DNA of 64,000 bases from a virus, in the IMG/VR virus record IMGVR_UViG_3300045988_047309, positions 1 to 64,000 of that record. One strand, written 5' to 3'. Position 1 is the first letter of the stretch. Each line of letters starts with the position of its first letter. The notes below the pieces were generated by a model, which was not told where the DNA came from, searched no databases, and was given only the letters and a program-made list of their open reading frames with translations. This document shows, one piece after another, positions 1,852 to 64,000 of the stretch. The translations under genes and the position numbers were made by a program.

Positions 1852-1938
1852 TTTTTTAACTATTTGACTGCAAAGTTAGCTATGTCTTGACACTTAGAAA
1901 CCTTATCCATTAACTTTGTGAAATTGCAGACACCTTAA

Positions 1939-1981
1939 TTAATAGATAAGATTGCTATTATATAAGGTGTGATTATCTTTG
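1939..1981 (+). promoter_or_regulatory. late-type promoter with a degenerate upstream box
   Basis: TTAATAGATAA (1939-1949), exactly 24 nt, then TATCTTTG (1974-1981). The ATG at 2012 follows. Confidence 0.5.
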
Positions 1982-20708: not shown

Positions 20709-20913
20709 GAATAGCTAAACTGATATATAGGAGAAACTAAATAGCCTCTCCTAAACTCTTATGACCTTTTCCGTAATCACAAATCGCTGCTATTCAAATA
20801 CTTAAACAACCTTTTACGAGTTTATCTATCTCTATCCATATTATTCGTATCTTTGTGCTCGTAACGTTACGTAGTATTAATCAATTAATGTTTAACAAAA
20901 GATTCAGGATAAT

Positions 20914-24793: not shown

Positions 24794-25312
24794 CTACACA
24801 CTCATCTCAAGCATCTTCGGGTAGCCTTTCTTGTAATCGTAAGCCTCTACCTCCTCAATGGTTGTCAGCTCACTTACAACCGCCTTGTGGCTTGCCGTAA
24901 CGTTAAAGCACTCCAGGGCGTACATCTCAAGCACTGAGAGCAACTGAATAGCCTTGTCACAATCCACCACCAGTTTGATGCCTTTAAGCCACAGAGTTGT
25001 CGTTTGCTGTCCTGCCGCCTTGGCGATAGTGGTGGAGTTCATCAATCCCACACGAGTCGCCTTGTCAAGCCAAACAAGTAGTCCGTTCAGTATAAAGCCG
25101 TTCACCGATGATGAGGTATCGTAGGCTGTAATTTCAGCTATCTTCTCGACCTTTGCCTGTTCAAGCTTCTCTGACTCCGTAGGTACAGGCTCTTGATATT
25201 CCTTGTAGCCTGCCTGTCGCAGCATATCCTCTGTTGGGTTACACACCACGCATCCGTTTAACTCTATGGTGTCGGATGCAAAGACACCATTCTTAATCCA
25301 TTTCTTTGTCAT
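24794..25312 (-). CDS. DUF4376-like tail-fibre-associated protein
   Basis: EKIAEITAYDTSSSVNGF...WLDKATRVGL...LEMYALECFNVT...EEVEAYDYKKGYP matches the pattern I recall for DUF4376. Confidence 0.6.
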   Translation of the reverse strand: MTKKWIKNGVFASDTIELNGCVVCNPTEDMLRQAGYKEYQEPVPTESEKLEQAKVEKIAEITAYDTSSSVNGFILNGLLVWLDKATRVGLMNSTTIAKAAGQQTTTLWLKGIKLVVDCDKAIQLLSVLEMYALECFNVTASHKAVVSELTTIEEVEAYDYKKGYPKMLEMSV

Positions 25313-25341: not shown

Positions 25342-25950
25342 TTAACTTTTTGTAAATTCTATTTCATTAGAACTTGTATAGAACTTATTCTCAACTTTGT
25401 CTAATAGCCCTATCTTACCGTCGCTTCTGCGGCGAACAGGAATAAAGTCTCTAAGAAGCTTATTACCATTATAGATTCTTACATAGTAAACAAAGCCATA
25501 ACAAAACTTTTCATATAAGAAGAACAACTTTATCGTTCTGTTAGTAAAATAACTCTTTCTTCCTGCCTTAGGTGAAATAAGGTAATTATCATCCAATTTA
25601 GCCCAAAATTCATTTTCTCCGATTCCGTTTTGAAACTTGTATTCATGTGGCTCTGTTAGCAGCGTCTTGTAAAGATTGATATTTTCGTAAACAGCACCGC
25701 AACCTTGAATAAAAGTATTAGTTGTTTCGCTTCCATTTTTTCCACTATAAAATCTATCTTTATCTCCAGTAGCCAAACTACTTGACATAAAACGGAATGA
25801 CCAAGGCACAAAAGAAGGAGCCGAGAATTTAATATGAAAGATATAATTTCCTTCAGGGAAACCAGTATCAACATATCCACCATTAGTATATAAGCAATCC
25901 AAAATTTCATATTTTGTTTTGAATAACAGTTTTCTTCTTAAAGTTCTCAT
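25342..25950 (-). CDS. AT-rich distal tail-fibre / receptor-binding candidate (202 aa)
   Basis: ATGA overlap with the tail-fibre gene. The C-terminal ...LLRDFIPVRR..GKIGLLDKVENKFYTS motif is common in gut-phage fibre tips. Confidence 0.45.
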   Translation of the reverse strand: MRTLRRKLLFKTKYEILDCLYTNGGYVDTGFPEGNYIFHIKFSAPSFVPWSFRFMSSSLATGDKDRFYSGKNGSETTNTFIQGCGAVYENINLYKTLLTEPHEYKFQNGIGENEFWAKLDDNYLISPKAGRKSYFTNRTIKLFFLYEKFCYGFVYYVRIYNGNKLLRDFIPVRRRSDGKIGLLDKVENKFYTSSNEIEFTKS

Positions 25951-27368
25951 ACACTTTCCTCCTCTGTATTAAGTCTCCACTCTTGACAAAGGCCATAGTA
26001 CTTGCCACCTGTATATCTGATATTAAATTCGTAATGGGTATTTACATTTACGTTTGGCGTTTCTCCCCAAATTACGTTTGATGGAAAAGTTATCGTTGGT
26101 GCAGTAACTCCTGTGTCAAAGCTACCTTGATACTCGTTGGTTATTGTAGTATCTGTTGGTGGTGTTAATGCAAGAGTGAGAGATTCTCCAATAGCTATAT
26201 TATAAACCTTATTTGGTTCAAGTGTAACAGTATCACCACTTACGGGAACTTCTATGTTAGGTAACTTAACTAAATCGGTATATTTATTAACCTCTACCAT
26301 AGCTACTTCCTTGCAGCTTTCTACTACTTTGTCCTGCAAAGTTTTTAGCTGCTCTGGGGTAAAGTCGTCATAGGTAAAAGCGTCTCCCTTATCACCAATA
26401 TCTCCCTTTTCGCCTTTTATATTCTTAAAGTTGAAAGAAAGTTTTTGCTTGTTGTTTTCTACAGATTGATTTATCTCTACAGAAGGAGTTCCTACAGCAT
26501 TATCTACACTTCCCTCAGCAGTAATATTGAGGTCTAAAGTTTTCTTAACTCCTGTTCTGTCTGTTACCTCAAAGATATTTCCTTCCGTGATAGTTGCATT
26601 GACTTTCTCTGCGCCAGTAGTAGCTTTATTAGTATTATCGGCAGCGGTATTAGCAGCGTTGATGGATGCAGTAAGGGCATTGAGGTCTATCTTGTCAAGT
26701 TTACCCTTGTCGGAAGGTGACATAAAGCCAGCACTACCAGGAGATATAAAAGGCTTGCTTTTTTCGCTGTCACTTAACTCGGAGTTAGAACGTGATGTGT
26801 TTGTTGGTGCTGTGGCTTTAGGGACAACAAGATATTGGTGTGAACCATCGGCAAACTCAATTCTGATAGCTGTTTCAGATGGTGTGTCATCATCGCCATT
26901 CCATGCATCATCCCAAACTGGATCGTAAAATTTCAACTTAGCCACAGCCCCAGCCTTTTTGACATACTCTTGAAGGTCGAAGGTAGGAACGAAGTCACCA
27001 AGTTTCTCCCATTTTGTTGCATCAACATCTCCAGCTAAATCGCCTGCGTCTGTCAGGTCACCTGTGTAGATGTATTCTGCGTATTTATTGTTATCGCCAT
27101 CCTTGTTGCCCTTGAGGATATAGATATGTTTTTTGATGTTGCGAATATCAGTAGGGAGTTCTGTTACAACCTCAAAGAAGGTGGTGTCAAGGTTGCCCAA
27201 CTGAGAGAGAGGGACATTACCGCCAGCATCAAGCGAGGCAATACCATTCGCTTTGCCTTTTGTGTTTGTAATTCCTTCCGCTGCTGCGTTTATCTTATCT
27301 CTGATACCAGAAAGAACCAATGCAAGTCCCTCTGCGTCAAGATAACTGTTATATGTTTCGTTACTCAT
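25947..27368 (-). CDS. tail fibre protein (473 aa)
   Basis: GIASLDAGGNVPLSQLG motif typical of phage fibres. Short collagen-like GEKGDIGDKGDA segment. Confidence 0.7.
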   Translation of the reverse strand: MSNETYNSYLDAEGLALVLSGIRDKINAAAEGITNTKGKANGIASLDAGGNVPLSQLGNLDTTFFEVVTELPTDIRNIKKHIYILKGNKDGDNNKYAEYIYTGDLTDAGDLAGDVDATKWEKLGDFVPTFDLQEYVKKAGAVAKLKFYDPVWDDAWNGDDDTPSETAIRIEFADGSHQYLVVPKATAPTNTSRSNSELSDSEKSKPFISPGSAGFMSPSDKGKLDKIDLNALTASINAANTAADNTNKATTGAEKVNATITEGNIFEVTDRTGVKKTLDLNITAEGSVDNAVGTPSVEINQSVENNKQKLSFNFKNIKGEKGDIGDKGDAFTYDDFTPEQLKTLQDKVVESCKEVAMVEVNKYTDLVKLPNIEVPVSGDTVTLEPNKVYNIAIGESLTLALTPPTDTTITNEYQGSFDTGVTAPTITFPSNVIWGETPNVNVNTHYEFNIRYTGGKYYGLCQEWRLNTEEESV

Positions 27369-28925: not shown

Positions 28926-28968
28926 CAAAGATAGGCAGAATTCAATCTACCTATCTCTTATCCGTTAA
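28926..28968 (-). promoter_or_regulatory. late-type promoter TTAACGGATAA-N24-TATCTTTG (minus strand)
   Basis: The plus strand shows CAAAGATA at 28926-33 and TTATCCGTTAA at 28958-68, with an exact 24-nt gap. Confidence 0.6.
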
Positions 28969-32328: not shown

Positions 32329-32372
32329 CAAAGATACAAAAATGTATTGAAATAACCAAATTAATCGGATAT
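32329..32372 (-). promoter_or_regulatory. promoter of the packaging operon with a variant upstream box
   Basis: -7 TATCTTTG (plus strand CAAAGATA, 32329-36), exactly 24 nt, then TTAATCGGATAT (32361-72). This is the box in inverted orientation with one extra nucleotide. Confidence 0.45.
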
Positions 32373-32384
32373 GATTAAGTATAG

Positions 32385-32427
32385 TTAACGGATAAGATTA
32401 ATAATAATCTGAAAAGCGTTACTTTTG
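32385..32427 (+). promoter_or_regulatory. late-type promoter TTAACGGATAA-N24-TACTTTTG
   Basis: Box at 32385-95 and -7 at 32420-27, upstream of the scaffold/capsid/portal operon. Confidence 0.6.
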
Positions 32428-32458: not shown

Positions 32459-33274
32459 ATGAACGAAAATGTAAATACAGAGCAGAATGCTGGTGCTGCA
32501 AAACAGCAAGACACCAAGACCAAGAAGGACTTGGCTTTGGAGCGTTTGAAGGTTAGGCATCCTGACACCGAGTATGCAGACGATGAGTCTATCTACGGAG
32601 CTATCAATGACGATTACGATGCCGACCAGAAGGCCTTGCAGGGTTACAAGGATAATGAGAAGGCGATGGGCGAGTGGCTTGGCAGCGACCCTGAGGCAGC
32701 CGCCTTCCTTCAAGCGATGAAGGCAGGCAAGAGTCCTTACGCAGAGTTGATTCGCACGCATGGCGAGGATGCCATAGACTACTATTCGGACCCAGACAAT
32801 GCAGACGAGATTGCAGCGGCTCAGTCGGAGTTCCTGAAGAATGCCGCCAACGGCAAGAAGTTGCAGGAGGAGTACGACAAGAACATGCCATCCAGCTATG
32901 AAGTCTTTGACAAACTGGAAGAGAAGTATGGCGAGGAAGCGGTAAACGAAGCTATCGACCAATGTTTCCAGACTATGCGCAATGTGGTGACAGGTAAGTT
33001 TACAGAGGAGATGATTACTGCATTCATCAAGGCAAAGAACCACGATACCGATGTGGCCGATGCCGCTCACGAAGGCGAGGTTCGTGGCAAGAACAGCAAG
33101 CACGTCAAGAACTTGGAGCTTCGCAAGAAGGGCGATGGCACTGCCGAACTTGATTCTGCCAATGCAGAGACCAAGCCAACGGATAACCAGCCAGACCTTG
33201 GTGCGCTTGATAGGGCATCACGCAGAGGAAACATTTGGCAGCGTGGGCACGAGAAAAGAACACGTATTCGATAA
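32459..33274 (+). CDS. scaffolding protein candidate
   Basis: Acidic helical protein directly upstream of the capsid gene. ATG at 32459 (the track start at 32432 is TTG). Basic C-terminus NIWQRGHEKRTRIR. Confidence 0.55.
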   Translation: MNENVNTEQNAGAAKQQDTKTKKDLALERLKVRHPDTEYADDESIYGAINDDYDADQKALQGYKDNEKAMGEWLGSDPEAAAFLQAMKAGKSPYAELIRTHGEDAIDYYSDPDNADEIAAAQSEFLKNAANGKKLQEEYDKNMPSSYEVFDKLEEKYGEEAVNEAIDQCFQTMRNVVTGKFTEEMITAFIKAKNHDTDVADAAHEGEVRGKNSKHVKNLELRKKGDGTAELDSANAETKPTDNQPDLGALDRASRRGNIWQRGHEKRTRIR

Positions 33275-33326
33275 TGCGATAAGATAAAAAGACAATTTAT
33301 ATGTTTAATTAATATTCAGAATAACA

Positions 33327-34868
33327 ATGAAGAAAAGTACATTTAATCGGCTGCTTTCCATTTTTCTGATGGTAATGGCGGTTATTTTTGGAGTGAATGG
33401 TCAGGTCGTTATGGCTGAGGCGGTTCTGCCTGATGGCGGTACGACCGAGGGTGGACATGCCGCTGAGGCTGGCGGTGCTACTGCTGCCGAAGAAGCTGGC
33501 AATGGCGGTGCGGCTCGTCAGGATGACGGTATAGCAACCGAAGGCAAAGGTCGTGAACACTTCAATGAGAACGGCACGGAGTTCTACGAGAACGACATCA
33601 ACGACAAGATTACGAAGATTCGTCCGATGGCCACTCCTGTTGACCAGATTTCACGTTATGCGACAACCAAGTCAGCCAGTTCGTTCGTAGTAGAATACTG
33701 GAGTATCGGTACACGTCCTATCAAGACCACCGTGAAGGAAACAACCGTAGAGAGTACAGGCACCTCTATGGTGTTGAAGGTTGAGGACCCAGAAATGTTT
33801 ACACTGGATGATACCATCCGAGTGGTAGGTGTGAAGGCAATTACCAACTACAAGAACCAGGCTTACGCAGACCTTACCGATGAGCCAACTCCAGATTTGG
33901 AACTCTGTGTGTGCGGTAAGGATAATGAGGGTTATCCTATCGTGTATGCAGTAAATGGTAAGTTGGTTAATAAGCAGCCTATTGGTATTCCTGCACTACA
34001 GAAGGGACAGAAGCTCATCCGTATGGCGAAGAGTTGCGGTGAGTTGGACGTACAGACAGGTCGTTTCAACAACCTTCCTGCTTCTGAGATTCAGTACTGC
34101 CAGAACTTCATGATTCAGATTGAAGAGAGTACCTTCAATAAGATTGCCGCTAAGCGAGTGGATTGGGACTTCTCAGACATCGAGGAAGACAGCATCTATG
34201 ACATGCGTCTTGCGATGGAGGGCACTTATCTCTTTGGCGATATGGGCTGTATCAAACATACCACCAAGAACAACTCAGCCCAGTGGTTTACCAAGGGTAT
34301 CTGGTGGATGGCTGGCAAGGACATCGAGGTAGGCCATGTTGCTACAGCCGATGACATGAAGAAGGGCTACAACAAGAATGAGCGAGTGATTACCGACTTG
34401 GAGTTGGTTGACATTTCCAAGGACTTGTTTGTGGGTACAGGTATCGGCAACAAGCGCAAGGTGATTATCGCAGGTTCAGGCTTCGTGAGCGCATTCAGTA
34501 AGATTGATTCTGACAAGTTCCGTCTGAAAGACACCGTAGAGGTTTGGGACCTGAAGTTCAAGAGTTGGGAGACCGACTTCGGTGAGGTGCTGATGATTCA
34601 CTCAGAGCTGTTCGACCTCTTTGATATGAGCGACTGCGGCTTTGCCATTGACCCAGAGTTCCTGGTTAAGCGAGTACACCTGTCTTGGACTCGTAACGTA
34701 CTCGACCTGAAGAAGGCTGGCATCCGTAACACCGATGCAGTAGTCATCCAGGAGGTTGCCTGTCTCTACTTGAAGTACCCTAAGGCACACGCTCGTATGC
34801 GCCTTGCTGCCGTGTCTGCCGCAGAAGGTACATCTGACACTGGTGAGAACAAGGACACCAATGTCTAA
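33327..34868 (+). CDS. major capsid protein, start uncertain
   Basis: ENDINDKITKIRPMATPVDQISRY and overall pattern typical of HK97-fold capsid proteins of Bacteroidetes phages. Strong terminator follows. The N-terminus has a hydrophobic segment. Confidence 0.7.
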   Translation: MKKSTFNRLLSIFLMVMAVIFGVNGQVVMAEAVLPDGGTTEGGHAAEAGGATAAEEAGNGGAARQDDGIATEGKGREHFNENGTEFYENDINDKITKIRPMATPVDQISRYATTKSASSFVVEYWSIGTRPIKTTVKETTVESTGTSMVLKVEDPEMFTLDDTIRVVGVKAITNYKNQAYADLTDEPTPDLELCVCGKDNEGYPIVYAVNGKLVNKQPIGIPALQKGQKLIRMAKSCGELDVQTGRFNNLPASEIQYCQNFMIQIEESTFNKIAAKRVDWDFSDIEEDSIYDMRLAMEGTYLFGDMGCIKHTTKNNSAQWFTKGIWWMAGKDIEVGHVATADDMKKGYNKNERVITDLELVDISKDLFVGTGIGNKRKVIIAGSGFVSAFSKIDSDKFRLKDTVEVWDLKFKSWETDFGEVLMIHSELFDLFDMSDCGFAIDPEFLVKRVHLSWTRNVLDLKKAGIRNTDAVVIQEVACLYLKYPKAHARMRLAAVSAAEGTSDTGENKDTNV

Positions 34869-34904
34869 AAGCAAGTAGATTTACAGATAGTCATTAAATA
34901 GTGA

Positions 34905-34936
34905 GGGGTGTGGGCACTTGCCCCATCCCTTTTTTT
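34905..34936 (+). terminator. strong intrinsic terminator after the capsid gene
   Basis: GC-rich hairpin at 34905-34929 followed by T7 (34930-34936). Confidence 0.8.
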
Positions 34937-34964
34937 AGTAACACATATATAATAAGATATAATC

Positions 34965-35372
34965 ATGTTTAAGAAATATCAAGCAGGTACAGATTTAGCA
35001 TTTAGTGTCATGGTAGGCGATGAGAGAATGCGTATTATTTTCGAGGGCAAGACCATGGGCTGTAGTGTCTATATGACAAGAGACCCAAAGGTACAGAAGG
35101 CCATTGAGTCCCACTATTGGTACAAAGACAAATTCTTCTTGGTAGAGAGTGTTGACGAGAAGAAGGAAGCCGCAGAGGCCAAGAAGAAGGCCGATGCCAA
35201 GGCCAAGAAGAAAATGGCTGACGAGAAGAAGACTCACGTAGTGACAGACGTTGAGGATGCCAAGGACTATTTAGCTGAGACCTTTGGAGTGAGCCGTTCA
35301 AAGATGAAGACCAAGGAAGACATCTTGGCCATCGCCAAGGAAAAGGGTGTTGAATTAGAAGGACTGGAGTAA
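34965..35372 (+). CDS. head-module protein (135 aa) with Lys/Ala-rich linker
   Basis: Position after the capsid gene. TAATG overlap with the next gene. Confidence 0.5.
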   Translation: MFKKYQAGTDLAFSVMVGDERMRIIFEGKTMGCSVYMTRDPKVQKAIESHYWYKDKFFLVESVDEKKEAAEAKKKADAKAKKKMADEKKTHVVTDVEDAKDYLAETFGVSRSKMKTKEDILAIAKEKGVELEGLE

Positions 35373-36028
35373 TGAGAACGTATGCTGTATCTGAACTGGT
35401 GAAAGAAGTAAAGGTACTCCTTGACAGGAACCAGGAGTCCGCTGGACTGCTGACTCCTGGCGATACCGATACGCTATCACAGGGCGAGTTGATTCAGAGT
35501 AAGATAGTAGATGCAGCAAGAATCATATTGATGGATGCTCCTGCCTTCATGCTGGACGGAAAGGACTACAATGGGCTGAATACATCTTGGGCAGAATCAG
35601 ATGGTGCTTATGTAGGAACCACCCATCTACCTTCCGACATGATCAGACTCCTTAACGTGAAGGCCAGTGACTGGAACCGCTCGGCAGAGATCATCACAGA
35701 GGAGGATGATGCCTACAAGGTACAGTGTAGCCGATTCGGAGTAAGAGGAAACCCAGAGCGACCTGTCGCTGCACTCATCCATAGAAGTGGCGAGCGACTC
35801 TTGGAGCTATTCACAAGCAAGAGCAATACCGCCACCGTGTCGCTCACCTATGTCGGTATGCCTTCTATCAGTGAAGGCAATATCGATTTGCCCGAAACAT
35901 TGAAGGACTCCATCATATATATGGCTGGCTATCTTACTTGCATCAGTCTTGGCGATACCGACACCGCAAGCGGATTTCTCGGAGTGGCCAGAAAACTGGC
36001 GCATATTGTTGAACCTACGACATCATAA
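35372..36028 (+). CDS. head-module protein (218 aa), possible connector/completion protein
   Basis: Position between capsid and portal only. Confidence 0.45.
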   Translation: MRTYAVSELVKEVKVLLDRNQESAGLLTPGDTDTLSQGELIQSKIVDAARIILMDAPAFMLDGKDYNGLNTSWAESDGAYVGTTHLPSDMIRLLNVKASDWNRSAEIITEEDDAYKVQCSRFGVRGNPERPVAALIHRSGERLLELFTSKSNTATVSLTYVGMPSISEGNIDLPETLKDSIIYMAGYLTCISLGDTDTASGFLGVARKLAHIVEPTTS

Positions 36029-36031
36029 ATT

Positions 36032-38068
36032 ATGGCAAAGAAGAAAGAAGAAACCAAACTGCTATCATTGAGCAGGGTGCTTGACAAGGAAGAACTGGAT
36101 AGCGTGAAAGCATCCAAGAGCCGATTTGACAAGCCATACGAGCGTGCCTTCTCTATCTTGCTGGAGGCCCAACGATACTACAACAACATGGATAACTTCC
36201 GAAAGCGAAGACTGAGAAACAAGCGATACTGCTATGGAGACCAGTGGGGCGATACCATTACGTTTAAAAACAAGTGTGGCTTCAAAAAACGTATCAAGGA
36301 GGAAGACTATATCCGTGAGCAGGGCAGTGAGCCGTTGAAGAGTAACCTTATCAGAAGATTGGTGAAAAACGTGCTGGGAGTATATCGCTCACAGAGCAAG
36401 GAGCCAACCTGTAACGCAAGAGATAAGGACGAGAAGCGATATGGCGAGACCATGAGCGTGGTGCTGCAATGCAACCGACAACTGAACAGAGAGTCGGAGC
36501 TGGATGCCCGAACCATGGAAGAGTTCCTGATAAGCGGTGCCGCTATCTATAAGAAAAAATACGGATGGCGAAGAGGCAGGTTGGATTGCTGGACGGACTA
36601 CGTGAACCCAAACAATTTCTTCATAGACAACAATATGAGGGATTTCCGTGGATGGGACGTAAGCTGTTTGGGCGAGGTACACGACATCACCATCGGCAAT
36701 GTGCTGAGAGAGTTTGCCAAGTCTCCTGCTGAGGCTCGTAAGTTGAAGGAGATATATCGGTTGGCGGCTAACCGTGATTTCGTGATTGCAGACTGCACCC
36801 AGCGATTCGGAGAGTTCGACCCCAAGACCATCGACTTTATGAATCCTGCCAACCCATCTCTTTGTCGAGTGATTGAGGTGTGGCGCAAGGAAAGCAAGCC
36901 CAGATACCGATGCCACGACTACAACAATGGCGATGATTTCAAGATAGACATTGAAGACAAGGCCGACATTGTAGATGCCGAGAATAGAGATAGATTACGT
37001 AGAGGTCTGGCCGCTGGCATGCAGGAGGAGGATATTCCTCTGATTGATGACGAGTGGTTTATGGACGATTACTGGCATTTCTACTACCTTTCCCCATTCG
37101 GTGATATACTGAGAGAGGGTGAGACCCCTTATGCACACGGCGAGCATCCTTACTGCTTTAAGTTCTATCCATTCATTGACGGAGAGATTCACAGCTTCGT
37201 GGAAGATGTGATTGACCAGCAGAGATACGTGAACCGACTTATCACGATGTACGACTTCATTATGAGGGCGAGTGCAAAGGGTGTGCTGCTCTGTCCTGAT
37301 GACTGCCTCCCTGATGATATGAGTTGGGATGATTTCTGCGATGAGTGGAGTAGATTTAACGGAGTAGTGAGGTACAAGCCCAACACAAGCGGTCAGGTTC
37401 CTCAGCAAGTGGCGAACAACTCTACGAACATAGGCATCGGTGATTTGCTCAGTTATCAGTTGAAGTTCTTTGAGGATATATCAGGAGTGACAGGAGCGTT
37501 GCAAGGAAAGCAAGGAGCATCGGGAACGAGCGGTTCGCTCTATGCCCAGCAGACACAGAACGCCACCATGTCGCTGCTTGATATTTTGGAGAGTTTCAGT
37601 CAGTTTGTCATTGACGGTGCGTACAAGACAGTGAAGAACATGCAGCAGTACTATGACGTGGCCCGCAATTTCAATATCGTTGGCAGGGCAGGGCAGATAG
37701 TGCGCTACGATCCTAAGAAGATACGAGACGTGGAGTTTGACATCAATATCACGGAAAGCACGGCTACACCCGTATATAGACAGATGGCCAACGAGTTCCT
37801 TATGACCTTGTGGCAGAATCAGGCTATCACGTTGGAGCAGTTGTTGCAAGTAGGAGACTTCCCATTTGGCGAGGAGCTGTTGCAATCGGTAGCATCCAAC
37901 CAGCAAGCCATTCAGAATGGCGAGACCCCACAAGGATTCTCTCCTCAGTTGCAAGCACAAGTGGCTCAGGCATCACAGAGCAATCCGAAGGCCCAGGCGA
38001 TGCTACAGCAGATGATGAGTGGTCAGGGAGTGAGTCCTGACGGACAGACCCCACCGCTTGCAGCTTAA
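36032..38068 (+). CDS. portal protein candidate (678 aa)
   Basis: Size, head-module position and Gln-rich C-terminal tail. No catalytic motif is expected for a portal. Confidence 0.6.
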   Translation: MAKKKEETKLLSLSRVLDKEELDSVKASKSRFDKPYERAFSILLEAQRYYNNMDNFRKRRLRNKRYCYGDQWGDTITFKNKCGFKKRIKEEDYIREQGSEPLKSNLIRRLVKNVLGVYRSQSKEPTCNARDKDEKRYGETMSVVLQCNRQLNRESELDARTMEEFLISGAAIYKKKYGWRRGRLDCWTDYVNPNNFFIDNNMRDFRGWDVSCLGEVHDITIGNVLREFAKSPAEARKLKEIYRLAANRDFVIADCTQRFGEFDPKTIDFMNPANPSLCRVIEVWRKESKPRYRCHDYNNGDDFKIDIEDKADIVDAENRDRLRRGLAAGMQEEDIPLIDDEWFMDDYWHFYYLSPFGDILREGETPYAHGEHPYCFKFYPFIDGEIHSFVEDVIDQQRYVNRLITMYDFIMRASAKGVLLCPDDCLPDDMSWDDFCDEWSRFNGVVRYKPNTSGQVPQQVANNSTNIGIGDLLSYQLKFFEDISGVTGALQGKQGASGTSGSLYAQQTQNATMSLLDILESFSQFVIDGAYKTVKNMQQYYDVARNFNIVGRAGQIVRYDPKKIRDVEFDINITESTATPVYRQMANEFLMTLWQNQAITLEQLLQVGDFPFGEELLQSVASNQQAIQNGETPQGFSPQLQAQVAQASQSNPKAQAMLQQMMSGQGVSPDGQTPPLAA

Positions 38069-38318: not shown

Positions 38319-38451
38319 AGAAAGGAGGTGTTTTTATCGTAACTGTATTTGTCTGACACTCAGATAGCTACAGAGATATTTATGAGTTTATGGTGCTGTG
38401 TTAAAGATATTCCTATCTTTGCAGCATCATAAACTTTTAAATTTAACAGGT

Positions 38452-38937
38452 ATGAATTTCGTAGAGTTTGTCGAAAAGTATCAACAGGATATGACTCCTG
38501 AACAGATGTTGAGTATAGCCAAGGCTATCGGTAAGTATCTCTCGTGCAAGTTGAGCGATGCAGAGGTGCATCATCTATGTGCGATGGTGCATGGCGTATT
38601 GAGTGAAGAACATTTTGACAAGTACTTTGCCGATGATGCTATCAGTAAGATGTGGTATGAGGATGCAGACGGAACCAGGCACACGGCACCTTTCTTTACG
38701 GACGAAGAGATAAAGGAGGTCTTCGATGAACACAAGGATGACATATCAGACTATACCATCCATGACTTGGCAGTAACCATGAATTTGCTGAGGAGCGACC
38801 ATCATGTTCTGCTGGAGCGGTACAGTGAGGATGCAGAGGAGTTGAAAGAAATGGTGGTGTTGATGGCAATAGAATACCTCCAAGACCCTGACTGTCTGTA
38901 CCCAACGAGCAAGATATGGCACAACATTAACGGATAA
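38452..38937 (+). CDS. hypothetical acidic protein
   Basis: ATG at 38452 lies downstream of a TATCTTTG box at 38414-38421. The stop is embedded in the next late box. Confidence 0.5.
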   Translation: MNFVEFVEKYQQDMTPEQMLSIAKAIGKYLSCKLSDAEVHHLCAMVHGVLSEEHFDKYFADDAISKMWYEDADGTRHTAPFFTDEEIKEVFDEHKDDISDYTIHDLAVTMNLLRSDHHVLLERYSEDAEELKEMVVLMAIEYLQDPDCLYPTSKIWHNING

Positions 38938-38969
38938 GATGATGAATTGGAAGACATAACTTATCTTTG
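38927..38969 (+). promoter_or_regulatory. late-type promoter TTAACGGATAA-N24-TATCTTTG
   Basis: Box at 38927-37 and -7 at 38962-69, upstream of the lysis cassette. Confidence 0.6.
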
Positions 38970-39000
38970 CGTATTATTAATATTTTATAAAAGATAAGTT

Positions 39001-39264
39001 ATGACTCCAAATGTACGTGAAGGATTGCAATATGGTGCAGCTATAGGAATGCTTTTGAGCGGTGTTGTGCTCACCTTCCTATCGTTCTTTCTCAACAATT
39101 ATGTAGTGTCGGAAGGCGTGCTGTGGTACGTCAGCCAGACACTGGTTTACTCAGGAGCGATATTCGGAGTAAACGTTTATTTCAAGACCAAGTTGGGCAA
39201 CTTTGAGAGCAAAGTAAAAGGAGAACTTGCAAGTATGATAAAACAAGTGAAGGAGGGTAAGTAA
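39001..39264 (+). CDS. holin candidate (87 aa, two hydrophobic helices, charged C-terminus)
   Basis: Topology, and position immediately upstream of the endolysin with a TAATG overlap. Confidence 0.6.
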   Translation: MTPNVREGLQYGAAIGMLLSGVVLTFLSFFLNNYVVSEGVLWYVSQTLVYSGAIFGVNVYFKTKLGNFESKVKGELASMIKQVKEGK

Positions 39265-39812
39265 TGAAGGTAACAAGAGAACAGGTTTTGGCTATCATGC
39301 CGAATGCAAAGGACAGGGTGGATGCTTTTCTTCCCTATATCAATGGTTATGCAGAGGTTTTTCATATTGATACTGCCCAGCGAATGGCCCACTTCCTGGC
39401 TCAGATAGCACATGAGAGTGGCGAACTGAGATACACCAAGGAACTCGGCAACAAAAACTACTTTCACAAGTATGATGTCGGGAAGTTGAAGAACATGCTC
39501 GGGAACCTGAAAGATGGAGACGGTTACAAGTATCGTGGTAGAGGATTGATTCAGATCACAGGCAGAGCCAACTATCAGGCTTTTCAGAACAGCAAGTATT
39601 GCTCTGACGATATTATGGAAAACCCCAAGCTGTTAGAGCTTCCCCTATTGGCAACCAAGAGTGCGATGTGGTGGTGGTGGAAACACGGTCTGAACAAACT
39701 GGCTGACAGTGATTGTATTGTGGCTATCACCAAGACTATCAATGGAGGGACCAACGGATTGGAATCAAGACGAAAGTTCCTTGCAAGAGCAAAGAAAGTT
39801 TTCAAAGTTTAG
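39264..39812 (+). CDS. endolysin, glycoside hydrolase family 19 (chitinase-like) type
   Basis: AHFLAQIAHESGELRYTKE, YRGRGLIQITGRANY and INGGTNGLESRR motifs. Confidence 0.85.
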   Translation: MKVTREQVLAIMPNAKDRVDAFLPYINGYAEVFHIDTAQRMAHFLAQIAHESGELRYTKELGNKNYFHKYDVGKLKNMLGNLKDGDGYKYRGRGLIQITGRANYQAFQNSKYCSDDIMENPKLLELPLLATKSAMWWWWKHGLNKLADSDCIVAITKTINGGTNGLESRRKFLARAKKVFKV

Positions 39813-44780: not shown

Positions 44781-45202
44781 GTGCTCGAATTTAAGTTTGG
44801 TCGCATGATTTCGTAGTATGGCTCACCTTTGCCTGACTTGCGTGGGATGCAAGTAAGGCGAACCATTCTGTTGAGCGGAAGATTGTACTCGTCCAGGATG
44901 GCGGTGACGGAAGGACGGTCACTTCGGAACCCCACCTTCTTATGCTCCTGATTGAATTGAAGCTGAGTGAAGGCGGTGTTTGCCTTGCAAAGTTCTTCCC
45001 AGTCCTCACGCATACAGAATCCGTATGTTCCTCTGTATGATAACCTGAACACGAAGACGGAGTGATCTGTACGCTCCTTCTGTATGATATGCCTGTATAC
45101 ACCCTTAGAGAGTGTGACAGAGTTTGCTCTTCCGTCCAGTATCACAAAGTAGTTGTGATACCTGAACCCTAAGACTTTAACTATTAAATGCTTGAATTTC
45201 AT
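44759..45202 (-). CDS. hypothetical protein (147 aa), first gene of a late operon
   Basis: The ATG lies 5 nt from the -7 box, so the mRNA is probably leaderless. Confidence 0.5.
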   Translation of the reverse strand: MKFKHLIVKVLGFRYHNYFVILDGRANSVTLSKGVYRHIIQKERTDHSVFVFRLSYRGTYGFCMREDWEELCKANTAFTQLQFNQEHKKVGFRSDRPSVTAILDEYNLPLNRMVRLTCIPRKSGKGEPYYEIMRPNLNSSTWRQDKM

Positions 45203-45206
45203 AGCG

Positions 45207-45249
45207 CAAATATAATAAGTAAATTGATAAGATATTTATTATCCGTTAA
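45207..45249 (-). promoter_or_regulatory. late-type promoter TTAACGGATAA-N24-TATATTTG (minus strand)
   Basis: The plus strand shows CAAATATA at 45207-14 and TTATCCGTTAA at 45239-49, with an exact 24-nt gap. Confidence 0.6.
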
Positions 45250-45263
45250 CTTTATATCCGACA

Positions 45264-45560
45264 CTACTTGTTGGCCAGTTCCTTCGCCTCTTCAAGTGAA
45301 ATAGGCTTTCCGCTAAGAGGAATGCGGAAGTCGAACTTGGAACGGAAAGAGTAGTAGCCTACGAAATCGAAGCTCTGTTTCATGCGCTCGTCTGTGGTGA
45401 TATACTTCTTATAAGCCTCCACTTCCTTTTTAGAGCGATAGATGGTAGAGTTGACGAAATAGGAACAGGTTCCCTTGTTTGCGATAACTGCAATAAAGAA
45501 CTGTTTGCCAAGGAACTTTTCCTTGATACGTTGGATAATTGAGATTTTCTTTGTATTCAT
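45264..45560 (-). CDS. hypothetical protein (98 aa)
   Basis: Clean ORF at the distal end of the early array. Confidence 0.5.
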   Translation of the reverse strand: MNTKKISIIQRIKEKFLGKQFFIAVIANKGTCSYFVNSTIYRSKKEVEAYKKYITTDERMKQSFDFVGYYSFRSKFDFRIPLSGKPISLEEAKELANK

Positions 45561-45603: not shown

Positions 45604-45795
45604 CTATTCTATAGCGCAAGACACGATGCAATCTTCTGTGTTGATGCCACGATAGTATTCACATCGCTGGCAAGCAAGGCTGCCAACCATCAGGACCTCA
45701 TTGGTGTATCTGCCATGCATACCGAATGGGCATGGAGTGGTGTACTCGAAGTGGCCACCTACAAATTCGTTGAGATTATATTTTGGATATTTCAT
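45604..45795 (-). CDS. small Cys-rich protein (63 aa)
   Basis: CPFG...CQRCEYY...C..C pattern. ATGA overlap with the upstream gene. Confidence 0.45.
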   Translation of the reverse strand: MKYPKYNLNEFVGGHFEYTTPCPFGMHGRYTNEVLMVGSLACQRCEYYRGINTEDCIVSCAIE

Positions 45796-59998: not shown

Positions 59999-60077
59999 TG
60001 GGACGCAAGGTGGGACTCGAACCCACGACCTCGAAGGATAGGGAACCTTCTGTTCTACCAACTGAACTACTTGCGTC
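59999..60077 (-). tRNA. non-canonical tRNA: His-like G-1:C73 acceptor, encoded CCA, 8-nt anticodon loop UUCCCUAU
   Basis: Hand fold: G-1, ACGCAAG/CUUGCGU acceptor, canonical D arm (GUUC AGUUGGUA GAAC), anticodon stem GAAGG/CCUUC with an 8-nt loop, 6-nt variable region, T arm GUGGG UUCGAGU CCCAC, then C73 and CCA. Confidence 0.7.
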
Positions 60078-62069: not shown

Positions 62070-62267
62070 TTAGTAGAAGAGTACCTTATCGACTACGACT
62101 CCTCCGAACTCCTTCAAGGCATCCTGTCTGATGTATTCGGATTGCTTGCTCTGACTTCTAAACCCTAAAGCGTTGTAAATGGTCTCTCTACTGCAACCAT
62201 ACCGCTCGGCAAGTTTTTTCCGTCCTTCACGCGAAACTTTGATAATTTTTATCTTTTTTGCTTGCAT
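62070..62267 (-). CDS. Cro-like small HTH regulator (65 aa)
   Basis: RKKLAERYGCSRETIYNAL helix-turn-helix. Divergent from the CI-like gene. TACCTTTG -7 box on the minus strand at 62327-62334. Confidence 0.6.
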   Translation of the reverse strand: MQAKKIKIIKVSREGRKKLAERYGCSRETIYNALGFRSQSKQSEYIRQDALKEFGGVVVDKVLFY

Positions 62268-62341
62268 AACTTAATTTTTTGTTGTATTTTTGCTTTTAAT
62301 AATTAAGCACTAATTGATTACGAGTGCAAAGGTATATAATA

Positions 62342-62359
62342 TCTTGCAAAAATGCAAGA
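62342..62359. promoter_or_regulatory. operator palindrome TCTTGCA-AAAA-TGCAAGA
   Basis: 18-mer in the divergent intergenic region. An identical copy sits at 62655-62672. Confidence 0.6.
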
Positions 62360-62374
62360 CTTTTGTCGAAAAAG

Positions 62375-62390
62375 TTGCGCAAATTTGCAA
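62375..62390. promoter_or_regulatory. related operator-like site TTGCGCAAATTTGCAA
   Basis: Contains the perfect 10-nt palindrome GCAAATTTGC and a TTGCAA half-site. Confidence 0.45.
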
Positions 62391-62421
62391 TATTTAATTA
62401 TGGTATAAAAATGTAAAATGT

Positions 62422-62805
62422 ATGGAAGTATCTGTAATTGAACGTATTAACGTTGTTTTAAAGCATTTTTGTAAAACTCCAAATGGCCTTGCAAATATGC
62501 TTGAAATGATTCCGAGTACGGTTAATAGACAATTAAAAGGAGACCAAGCTTTGTCATCTAAGGTGATAGAGGGAGTCCTTTCTGTCTTTCATGACGTTTC
62601 TGCCGAATGGTTATTGCGTGGAAAAGGCGAAATGCTTATTAGTGAACAAATGACTCTTGCAAAAATGCAAGATACTAAAGGAAGAGAATCTGATGTAGTA
62701 GAACATGATTCTGTCTGGAAGGCGAAGTACGAAGCTATTAAGGATTGCTACGATATGTTGGTGTCTAATCTTGGCGGTGTTATGGGTAAGAGAAGTGTAG
62801 GATAA
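62422..62805 (+). CDS. CI-like repressor (HTH, 127 aa)
   Basis: PNGLANMLEMIPSTVNRQLKG...AEWLLRGKGEM is typical of Bacteroidetes phage-repressor HTH proteins. Confidence 0.65.
   Translation: MEVSVIERINVVLKHFCKTPNGLANMLEMIPSTVNRQLKGDQALSSKVIEGVLSVFHDVSAEWLLRGKGEMLISEQMTLAKMQDTKGRESDVVEHDSVWKAKYEAIKDCYDMLVSNLGGVMGKRSVG
62655..62672. promoter_or_regulatory. second copy of the 18-nt operator palindrome, inside the CI-like gene
   Basis: Identical TCTTGCAAAAATGCAAGA, 313 bp from the first copy. Confidence 0.55.
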
Positions 62806-62821: not shown

Positions 62822-64000
62822 ATGAAAAGAGTAATGTTTGTTTTGTCTTTTATGTTAATTAGATTATGTGTTTTTTCACAAACAGTTATAGAAATGACAA
62901 AAGATGGTGGTGTTTTTACGGTTCCGTGTACAGTTAATGGCTATAAAGTTAGTATGATATTTGACACAGGAGCATCCGATGTTAGTCTGTCTTCTAAGGT
63001 TGCGTCTTATATGTTCCGTAATGGATTGTTGCGTGAAACAGACGTTATTGGCGAGGGGTCTTCTACTATTGCGTCTGGTGAAAGTATAGACCATATTGTT
63101 GTTAAAATAAAAAGATTAGAGATAGGTGGTATTAAAATTGATGATGTCGAGGCTGTTATATTGGATAGTCAAAGAGCACCTTTATTGTTAGGTTTGTCTG
63201 CAATTCAGAAAATTGGTAAGGTTGGTATAGATGGGAACAAGCTTATTATAAATAAATCAACGGCAAATTATAGCCCTGAGTATATAGATAAAGTATATGA
63301 AGGTTTAGAATCTAATTTTTCTTCTGGAAGTTATAGTATGATTATTCATCAAATGGAAGATTTTAAATATAAAAACCTTTTAACGGATAAAGGCTACAGA
63401 TACTTAGCAAGATGTTATCTTAGTACACATAAAGATAGAGAGTGTATTGATGTATGTAACGAATGGATTGATGACCCTTATATATATTTGTCAGACGATT
63501 CTTATTTCTATTCATATTATTATCGAATGATAGCCTATGATGGTTTAAAGGATAGAGATAACACGATATTATATTCGGAAAAACTGATAGATTGTATTGA
63601 GCACAAGGGACAATACTTATCTCTTTCCTCTAATTTGTTGAATGAACTTTTGGGAGATGCATATTATATGCAAGGCTTTGCATATTACGACAAAAATGCG
63701 TACACGTTAGCAAATTCTTGTTTCGAGAAAAGTTTGTCTGTATTACAAGATAGATATGGCTTATCCAAAATAGATGTACTTGATGGAAAAGGTCGAGTTA
63801 ACGATACAATAGGAAGTTGTTTTCTTATGATGGCAACTATTTCTCAGAAACGAGGTGATTATAATGGGTATATTTGTAGTTTGGTTTTTGGCGCAATGTC
63901 TGGCAATGATGTAACCATAAATCATTGCCGTTTAAATAACATTGATTATATAACAAAATCAAAAATCTTAAAAAATCAAATACAAAGTTTGGGGATAAAA
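62822..64000 (+). CDS. secreted retropepsin-like aspartic protease with helical-repeat C-terminal region (partial, runs off the window)
   Basis: Hand translation gives 393 codons with no stop. Signal peptide MKRVMFVLSFMLIRLCVFS, then VSMIFDTGASDVSLS (D-T-G-A). The ATG is 16 nt after the CI-like stop. Visibly AT-rich. Confidence 0.7.
   Translation, partial: MKRVMFVLSFMLIRLCVFSQTVIEMTKDGGVFTVPCTVNGYKVSMIFDTGASDVSLSSKVASYMFRNGLLRETDVIGEGSSTIASGESIDHIVVKIKRLEIGGIKIDDVEAVILDSQRAPLLLGLSAIQKIGKVGIDGNKLIINKSTANYSPEYIDKVYEGLESNFSSGSYSMIIHQMEDFKYKNLLTDKGYRYLARCYLSTHKDRECIDVCNEWIDDPYIYLSDDSYFYSYYYRMIAYDGLKDRDNTILYSEKLIDCIEHKGQYLSLSSNLLNELLGDAYYMQGFAYYDKNAYTLANSCFEKSLSVLQDRYGLSKIDVLDGKGRVNDTIGSCFLMMATISQKRGDYNGYICSLVFGAMSGNDVTINHCRLNNIDYITKSKILKNQIQSLGIK

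Follow-up and report, generated by a model that had tools for sequence, protein, structure and literature searches.

The late promoters Plys, PI, PP and Pmom of phage Mu have no good -35 element and carry a site for the small activator C, which is centred near -43.5 and overlaps or abuts the -35 position; the gene of this activator ends the preceding temporal class. In Bacteroidota, the canonical sigma-A promoter is said to combine a -33 element, TTTG, with a -7 element, TAnnTTTG. Here, we describe an 11-bp box, TTAACGGATAA, which occupies a fixed position upstream of -7 elements of this type in a phage of Bacteroidales. The DNA analysed, called the window throughout, comprises positions 1 to 64,000 of the IMG/VR record IMGVR_UViG_3300045988_047309. 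At 64 kb and a guanine-cytosine (GC) content of 42%, it represents almost the whole genome of a temperate podovirus-like phage.

Gene regulation in temperate phages of gut Bacteroidales is almost unexplored, and our literature searches returned no description of this box motif, or of late promoters, in phages of Bacteroidales or Bacteroides. The box is a genuine element of what are probably late promoters; it is apparently undescribed, and its conservation is strong within a group of phages that is widespread in gut Bacteroidales.

Box promoters in the window and in related phages

Six promoters of the window carried the box, four as the exact 11-mer and two as a copy with one or two mismatches. 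Every one had a TAnnTTTG -7 element at exactly 24 nucleotides (nt) from the box (N24). They are listed here by coordinates and strand, followed by a further exact copy of the box.

32385-32427 (+): promoter of the scaffold/major capsid/portal operon (32459-38068); box TTAACGGATAA, N24, TACTTTTG
38927-38969 (+): promoter of the lysis cassette; box, N24, TATCTTTG
28926-28968 (-): promoter of the tail-fibre operon (28901 to 24208); box, N24, TATCTTTG
45207-45249 (-): promoter of the genes for a 147-amino-acid (aa) and a 973-aa protein; box, N24, TATATTTG
1939-1981 (+): promoter of the internal-virion-protein/giant-protein operon; degenerate box with two mismatches, TTAATAGATAA (1939-49), N24, TATCTTTG
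1871-1913 (-): promoter of a 102-aa gene (1851-1543); variant box TTAATGGATAA (1913-1903), N24, TAACTTTG
63380-63390 (+): exact 11-mer inside a retropepsin-like open reading frame (ORF), probably an orphan; no TAnnTTTG at N24

All sequences and coordinates quoted in an initial annotation of the window were found in it, including the degenerate box at 1939-49 with its -7 element at N24, and the copy inside the retropepsin-like gene, where a proper -7 element is lacking. The box at 1913-1903 (-), back to back with the one at 1939 and divergent from it, had been missed. The exact box occurred five times (28958-68 (-), 32385-95 (+), 38927-37 (+), 45239-49 (-) and 63380-90 (+)), against a mean of 0.00 in 100 dinucleotide shuffles, and the composite TTAAYGGATAA-N24-TANNTTTG was found five times against zero expected. 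None of the six promoter spacers had a -33 TTTG at N19-21 from the -7 element. The distance from box centre to -7 element centre was 33.5 bp in every case, the same geometry as that of class II sites of CRP and FNR and of the Mu C site. For the ORF around the copy at 63380-90, a single homologue match was obtained, a partial one on a contig of a Muribaculaceae metagenome-assembled genome (L132), and none in related phage loci.

The arrangement was found throughout related phages. A pattern scan of IMG/VR gave at least 120 matches, most of them on contigs of 35-68 kb that belong to the same phage group; several of these contigs have the pattern two or three times. Among the matches listed, they fell at orthologous promoters, where the 24-nt spacers varied and the box and -7 element were constant. 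In the window and 120 of these pattern-selected loci, again among the matches listed, 190 boxes stood at N24 (140, 46 and 4 with zero, one and two mismatches, respectively), and no box with up to two mismatches stood at N22, N23, N25 or N26. As these loci had been chosen by the pattern itself, a separate, homology-based set was built. It comprised 84 loci (967 kb) retrieved via homologues of the 147-aa protein and of a 98-aa early protein treated below. In this independent set, 84 of the 85 exact boxes were followed at exactly N24 by TAnnTTTG. Motif scans of this phage and its relatives thus found the box, its spacing and its -7 element lineage-wide.

Individual sites followed the same trend. 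At the site orthologous to the scaffold-operon promoter, relatives kept the box and -7 element and differed in the spacer. The sites orthologous to the boxes at 1939 and 1913 read TAAACGGATAA or TTAACGGATAA and the exact box, respectively, the latter before a MAADRNTKGQFEKG gene. Upstream of the 147-aa gene, the box or a close variant (TTAACGGATAA, TTAATAGATAA, TTAACAGATAA or TCAACGGATAA) was present in all 74 relatives with enough upstream sequence. The orientation of the box relative to the -7 element was always the same, in the window and in relatives.

For a footprint, the data were collapsed to 33 non-redundant promoters. Box columns carried 1.5-2 bits, and the box and -7 element were near-invariant; spacer columns carried ~0-0.5 bits, with no TTTG at the -33 position. 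A purine was preferred directly 5' of the box and two purines directly 3' of it. An A was enriched 8 nt after TTTG (7 intervening nt) in 26 of the 33 promoters, which fits a start site and would place the box ~40-50 nt upstream of it. In prophage relatives residing in Bacteroidales/Prevotellaceae genomes of 56-65% GC, the AT-rich box and -7 element were exact amid GC-rich spacers, which we read as a strong sign of selection on the box. We consider the box very likely to be a functional promoter-linked element.

By capsid protein, the nearest cultured relatives were the temperate Bacteroides phages BKO1-TP3 and BS-TP4 (59% identity) and BF1-TP2 (42%); at the DNA level, 12 kb compared by megablast with 50,697 records of deposited phages matched none of them closely, and only the capsid protein led to relatives. 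The words 'promoter' and 'late gene' are both missing from the text of the paper on these three phages (PMC12694917). Variants tolerated in the window's group were TAAACGGATAA (39 sites), TTAATGGATAA, TTAATAGATAA and TTAACAGATAA. The exact box was absent from the cultured Bacteroides phages. Their scaffold and lysis-region operons are preceded by (G)TAAAAAGATAA and their portal gene by GTAAATAGTTAA, in each case at N24. Further Bacteroides-type genomes had GTAAAAGATAA, TAACAAGATAA, TCAAAAGTTAA, GCTAAAGTTAA or TAAAAAGATAA. There are two box types, TTAAYRGATAA and AAAAGWTAA, both at N24, and their comparison points to a family-wide core, G(A/T)TAA, with the 5' half TTAAYR in one clade and A-rich in the other. 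The initial annotation had called the box near-palindromic. Eight of its 11 positions are indeed self-complementary, but it occurs in one orientation only, and the relatives' variants TAAACGGATAA and AAAAGWTAA are not palindromic. A palindromic site for a dimer was rejected on the grounds of the fixed orientation and the asymmetric variants.

The lineage is that of temperate P22-portal-type podophages of Bacteroidales. Names on close homologues and genome matches make Prevotella/Segatella a more likely host of the window's own subgroup than Bacteroides. This corrects the earlier Bacteroides framing; the cultured Bacteroides relatives carry the variant box. The window encodes a large terminase, a P22-type portal (phrog_156), scaffold and capsid proteins and a GH19-type endolysin (phrog_181), and its capsid was homologous to that of BKO1-TP3 in a protein search. 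PHROG matches to tail fibres were located at 25947-27368 and 24794-25312. A T7 gp14-like internal virion protein (2012-2653) is followed by a 378-aa protein and a giant protein of 5086 aa. A phage tRNA gene at 60002-60076 (-) scored 53 bits with Rfam; ARAGORN gave it an 8-nt anticodon loop with the four-base anticodon 'ccct' and left the amino acid unassigned.

The terminase operon, which diverges from the scaffold operon, has a promoter of another kind.

32329-32372 (-): terminase-operon promoter; TTTG-N20-TATCTTTG, with the 'inverted box' ATATCCGATTAA at N24

According to the initial annotation, the box stands at N24 upstream of every late operon, and an inverted, one-nt-longer variant, TTAATCGGATAT at 32361-72, serves the terminase operon. 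This variant does sit 24 nt from the terminase-side TATCTTTG. Across 30 sequence variants from relatives, however, the 11-mer at this position was unrelated (GTCTAATCGGA, CGTTATTCTAA, TATATGAATAA and others), and the terminase promoter of the window's subgroup is of the ordinary kind, TTTG-N20-TATCTTTG. An inverted box was rejected for its lack of conservation, and the terminase operon is therefore not a box operon. The N24 spacing was rigid at the six virion and lysis promoters, but 'every' was too strong. The spacing between the divergent terminase and scaffold promoters differs by 9 bp among subgroups. From the inferred terminase start, the scaffold box is ~69 nt upstream in the window subgroup (window 32329-32395) and ~60 nt upstream in the main subgroup, a difference of about one helical turn. 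More speculatively, the divergent terminase promoter might therefore also respond to a box-bound protein, which would occupy a class I-like position.

No box precedes the promoters at 307, 20848 and 38414, as had been reported. Two box-less promoters of the phage, at 307 and 32336, have TTTG at N19-20. Two others, 20818-20855 (+) and 38384-38421 (+), both have GAGTTTAT-N22-TATCTTTG and may represent another class of promoters; a DUF7841-like gene is driven by one of the two.

Two of the box promoters show further peculiarities. The ATG of the 147-aa gene follows the promoter TTTG by 4 nt in the window and by 1-5 nt across the window (45202-45214 (-)) and the related loci L324-L326 and L329-L333, and the box-initiated mRNA of this gene is probably leaderless or nearly so. 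The tail-fibre spacer (28927-28958 (-)) pairs with its own -7 element to form a 13-bp stem followed by a T-rich run, and similar pairing was seen in the spacers of relatives. The stem looks like a terminator of the upstream terminase operon, overlapping the next promoter.

Proposed activation of the box promoters

Our preferred reading is that the box is the site of a phage-encoded activator, with a probability of about 0.6; we give the same probability to its being the upstream recognition element of a dedicated late-promoter class. A phage protein from the long early operon would bind the box in one orientation and on a fixed face of the helix. The host sigma-A holoenzyme would read the -7 element, and the box-bound protein would replace the missing -33 contact, recruiting or stabilising the holoenzyme much as a class II activator does. 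All six transcription units for virion and lysis proteins would fire together, only after early expression, and would be silent in the lysogen. The most likely binder would be the 98-aa protein of the last early gene, possibly together with the adjacent 63-aa Cys-rich protein.

The position of the box is consistent with this mechanism. It sits directly upstream of the usual contact position of sigma region 4, and the fixed distance of 33.5 bp to the -7 element agrees with class II activator geometry, in which the site has its centre at about -41 to -44 and abuts the -35 position, if the putative start site is taken as reference. The most economical interpretation is an activator site with its centre near -42 to -45. 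The initial annotation had proposed a late activator or an alternative sigma-factor site near -42. The first of these options is retained, and the second is disfavoured by the host-type -7 element and by the absence of a sigma domain from ~75 scanned ORFs. The genes behind the box encode scaffold, capsid, portal, endolysin, tail fibres and T7 gp14-like internal virion proteins.

We favour activation over repression or constitutive strength, because a temperate phage cannot have lysis promoters that are constitutively on, because the immunity region has TTGCA-type palindromes and no box, and because a protein that must touch RNA polymerase typically has its site in one orientation and at a distance exact to the nucleotide. 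Negative control, in which the box is an operator for a phage repressor that holds the late promoters off, would also meet the need of a temperate phage to keep its late genes silent in lysogens, and the box is a conserved, protein-sized site. We consider it highly improbable. The site, ~45 nt upstream, overlaps neither the -7 element nor the start site, its exact spacing and fixed orientation would be unneeded for repression, and promoters that lack a -33 element look activation-dependent.

The immunity region itself contains a pair of Cro-like and XRE-like genes at 62070-62805 (XRE-like, 62422-62805), with a Rha/ANT antirepressor gene nearby. Between the two genes (62267-62422) lie the palindromes TTGCAAAAATGCAA and TTGCGCAAATTTGCAA, which are unrelated to the box and are probable operators. 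As they differ from the box, its identity as a CI operator was rejected.

The lysis promoter offers a separate indication of where transcription would start.

38955-39003 (+): perfect 14-bp inverted repeat, CATAACTTATCTTT ... AAAGATAAGTTATG, with arms at 38955-38968 and 38990-39003

By this repeat, the -7 element is linked to the first lysis start codon, that of an 87-aa holin-like gene at 39001, which is followed by the endolysin gene (39264-39812) and further genes. On the other side, the final TAA of the lysis box is the stop codon of the gene upstream. Relatives keep the pairing by compensatory changes (AACTTATC/GATAAGTT, ATCTTATC/GATAAGAT, GACTTATC/GATAAGTC and CCTTATC/GATAAGG). A read-through transcript would bury the lysis start codon in the hairpin, and a box-initiated transcript, which would not contain the 5' arm, would leave it free. 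The hairpin makes sense only if transcription is initiated between its arms, which would place initiation just downstream of the lysis -7 element. The same start-codon-occluding logic is known from the T4 lysozyme mRNA.

Three points weigh against a phage activator. The label 'late' is taken only from gene function. Promoters of Bacteroidota are able to function with a weak -33 element, and the box might then do no more than strengthen promoters with an activity of their own. The third point comes from a scan of a species-level genome collection (596 Gb) with the composite of box and -7 element, which has 17 fixed bases and for which we estimate some tens of matches by chance. In Prevotella falsenii and an uncultured Prevotella, an exact TTAACGGATAA-N24-TAATTTTG stands 15 nt upstream of a host tRNA gene, amid ordinary host genes (coaBC-like and recN-like; L194 5902-6033 and L191 262-393). 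This composite may be due to chance, or it may hint at a host factor that reads the box.

If the box were read by the host, as an UP-like element or the site of a host factor, it would make the promoters strong, and their timing would be set elsewhere, for example by read-through, antitermination or the translational hairpin. Besides the tRNA promoter, several features fit this explanation. Phages whose candidate regulators share only 50-60% identity, and whose hosts range from 40 to 65% GC, have the box in its exact form, and its type tracks the host group. In E. coli numbering, the box lies at ~-48 to -38, where the proximal UP subsite is located, and the variant of the Bacteroides phages (AAAAGWTAA) is A-rich. 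The central CGG of the window's box, however, is unlike an A-tract UP element, and a lysogen would be killed by lysis and virion promoters that are strong at all times. In the genome collection, all two-copy loci, and 19 loci in total, carried homologues of the structural genes of this phage; every multi-copy locus was thus a phage. Most of the other matches were single, in unrelated phyla, with no phage genes near and at roughly chance frequency. Bacteroidota matches outside prophage-like loci were few, often inside ORFs, and not above the ~10-30 that we estimate to be expected by chance; three environmental ones that share TTAACGGATAACAG were judged compatible with chance. A host regulon was rejected on this outcome, mostly chance-level matches in unrelated phyla and prophages, with the Prevotella tRNA promoter left unexplained. 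We regard a box read by the host as improbable and retain the phage-encoded activator as the preferred reading.

Proteins encoded at the end of the early operon

The leftward early operon extends from ~62334 to 45264 and encodes an ERF recombinase, nucleases and a C5 methylase. It ends with two small genes.

45604-45795 (-): 63-aa Cys-rich protein, directly upstream of the 98-aa gene; a possible partner
45264-45560 (-): 98-aa basic protein (isoelectric point 9.8; phrog_30965), last gene of the operon; the best candidate for the box-dependent regulator

The box of the 147-aa gene promoter starts 15 nt past the stop codon of the 98-aa gene. The same order, with the 63-aa and then the 98-aa gene as the last early genes, followed by the box promoter of the 147-aa gene, was kept in every one of the 74 close relatives for which sufficient sequence was available upstream. 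The 98-aa protein was 90-98% identical in close relatives, and its conservation equalled or exceeded that of its neighbours. Its family, shown by a profile search, lacks annotation; it comprises 406 clusters at 90% identity and 137 at 50%, corresponds to PHROG 30965, and consists almost entirely of stand-alone proteins of 60-110 aa. Among them are gp31 of BKO1-TP3 and gp29 of BS-TP4, which are encoded at the same genomic position (hhalign E 1.6e-5). In 11 of 11 more distant genomes, fetched via family members, the family gene was the last early gene. It was followed by a box promoter in 10 of the 11, which started between 4 nt before the end of the stop codon and 230 nt after it. In the type B genome L327, no box promoter was found in the 19 kb available, an uninformative result.

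The subfamilies of the 98-aa protein differ in their best-conserved segment, KGTxxYFVNSTIYRS in one and KGTTKQEICSYIFAT in the other (YFVNSTIYRS versus QEICSYIFAT), and this split coincides with that between the two box types. Such a match is what a specificity-determining region would look like, and we take it as suggestive only.

The 63-aa protein, which probably binds zinc, was conserved only in the TTAAYRGATAA clade and had no Pfam match. The 147-aa protein, product of the first gene behind the junction promoter, is basic and conserved, with 36% identity in Bacteroides phages. In many relatives (locus L263, 5745-5990, and most IMG/VR relatives), an extra gene for a Cys-rich protein of ~80 aa (GQRFGRL...SCGC motif) separates the 98-aa gene from the box. 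The box itself supplies the end of this extra gene, V-N-G-stop, and the lysis box of the window likewise gives N-G-stop to the gene upstream. Bacteroides-type relatives (L121 16635-16997, which is gp33 of BKO1-TP3; L327 and L331) have an AbrB/MazE/SpoVT-like gene between the 147-aa homologue and a ~900-aa protein. The window has no separate gene at this position, and its 973-aa protein is longer than the ~900-aa counterpart.

Domain searches covered ~75 ORFs by Pfam and PHROG, with every early ORF of at least 45 aa included in the Pfam scans. They found only the ERF recombinase, nucleases, methylase, domains of unknown function and the Rha/ANT antirepressor, and no sigma, Mor/C, Ogr, Q, ArpU/RinA or MotA domain. 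Sequence and profile searches of the PDB gave nothing significant; the best match of the 98-aa family was of residues 28-55 to a helix-turn-helix (HTH) of the LuxR/sigma-region-4 type (E=1.2), and hhalign of the family against LuxR sequences gave a probability of 2%, so that the resemblance serves as a lead only. For the 98-aa and 147-aa proteins, AlphaFold gave models of too low a quality to be searched with (predicted local distance difference test, pLDDT, 47 and 44, respectively). Longer members of the 98-aa family had no informative Pfam domain, and one TrmO match looks like a gene-call artefact.

The same two small proteins could serve a different mechanism, in which sigma is replaced or appropriated. 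The box would then be an alternative '-35-type' element, read by a phage sigma-like protein or by host sigma-A with its region 4 remodelled by small phage proteins, like AsiA and MotA of T4; the 63-aa and 98-aa proteins would act as the pair. The box stands in for the missing -33 element, its spacing is as rigid as in a bipartite promoter, and the two conserved proteins are encoded side by side just before the first box promoter. The likeness of residues 28-55 to an HTH would also fit, but it is statistically empty at the values given above. The -7 element is the unmodified host consensus, which argues that host sigma region 2 is still in use, and none of the ~75 ORFs has a Sigma70_r2, r3 or r4 domain. 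The box lies upstream of the normal -33 position and not on it, unlike the MotA box at -30. Sigma replacement or appropriation is, in our view, unlikely.

Under the preferred reading, in which an activator binds the box next to host sigma-A, we propose the 98-aa protein as this activator tentatively and at less than even odds. It has no recognisable DNA-binding domain, and Pfam was empty for 29 family members. The link between subfamily and box type is one split between two clades, with which any lineage-linked protein or host factor would co-vary equally; the two clades seem to differ in host too (Prevotella/other Bacteroidales versus Bacteroides). The 147-aa and 63-aa proteins remain as alternative regulators or partners. 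A broader proposal, more doubtful still, is that the 98-aa family (~70-100 aa, PHROG 30965) is a new class of phage transcription factor that retargets sigma-A to promoters lacking a -33 element via a box at fixed N24. Its two subfamilies would have co-evolved with the two box variants, the 63-aa protein would be a partner in Prevotella-type phages, and the system would be coupled to the start-codon-occluding hairpin, so that lysis genes could be translated only from box-initiated transcripts.

Significance and comparison with known systems

The general regulatory design is familiar, and the regulator family attached to it is plausible but unproven. With a promoter signature that holds lineage-wide, late transcription units could be annotated from sequence in hundreds of metagenomic phage genomes, and the cultured phages BKO1-TP3 and BS-TP4 would acquire a concrete, testable candidate for their late switch. 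If true, the broader proposal on the 98-aa family would make this the first late-gene switch defined for Bacteroidales phages. The box promoters would also show that the unusual promoter architecture of Bacteroidota can be reprogrammed without replacing sigma. Synthetic biology with Bacteroides and Prevotella, for which few regulated parts exist, might also benefit from an orthogonal activator/promoter pair.

Compared with the canonical sigma-A promoter of Bacteroidota, the box promoters have an identical -7 element, and A is enriched 8 nt after TTTG, as expected for the start. They differ in that TTTG is missing at N19-21 and an 11-bp box stands at N24 instead. A regulon of a phage alternative sigma factor differs in two respects: no Sigma70 domain was found here in the ORFs scanned, and the -7 element is the host consensus.

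The likeness to Mu C/Mor lies in six promoters without a -33 element, a single box ~33 bp from the core centre, and a candidate gene at the end of the early operon. Mu sites, however, are dyad-symmetric and bound by HTH dimers, whereas the box has one orientation and non-palindromic variants. The core promoter here is of the Bacteroidota TAnnTTTG type, and the ~75 ORFs hold no Mor/C-family domain.

As in the T4 MotA/AsiA system, an element of the host -10 type is kept, a phage-specific box replaces the -35 element, and two small phage proteins could cooperate. With its centre at -30, the MotA box falls on the -35 position, and its spacing may vary by +/-1, whereas the box described here lies one turn further upstream with invariant spacing. 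The domain scans of ~75 ORFs detected no homologues of MotA or AsiA.

In P2 and P4, the small zinc-finger proteins Ogr and Delta activate at least four late promoters via a conserved site upstream, and here a 63-aa Cys-rich protein is encoded next to the first box promoter. The Ogr site, in contrast, is a TGT-N12-ACA dyad near -55, and Ogr contacts the alpha subunit. No dyad of this type was conserved upstream of the box in the 33 promoters, in which columns -15 to -1 were uninformative. The 63-aa protein occurs only in the TTAAYRGATAA subgroup and has no detected similarity to Ogr.

With lambda Q and P22 gp23, the system shares the position of the candidate gene, at the very end of the early operon and directly upstream of a late promoter. 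Q acts at a single late promoter, which has a Q-binding element and a promoter-proximal pause; here, the upstream box and the lack of a -33 element at six independent promoters point to control of initiation. Because the defining proteins are absent from the ~75 ORFs scanned, the site is no dyad and its position is unlike that of the MotA box, the box system stands outside all of these families as a member of none. By analogy, its mode of action appears to resemble that of Mu C and P2 Ogr, whose late regulons have several promoters, more than that of T4 MotA/AsiA or lambda Q.

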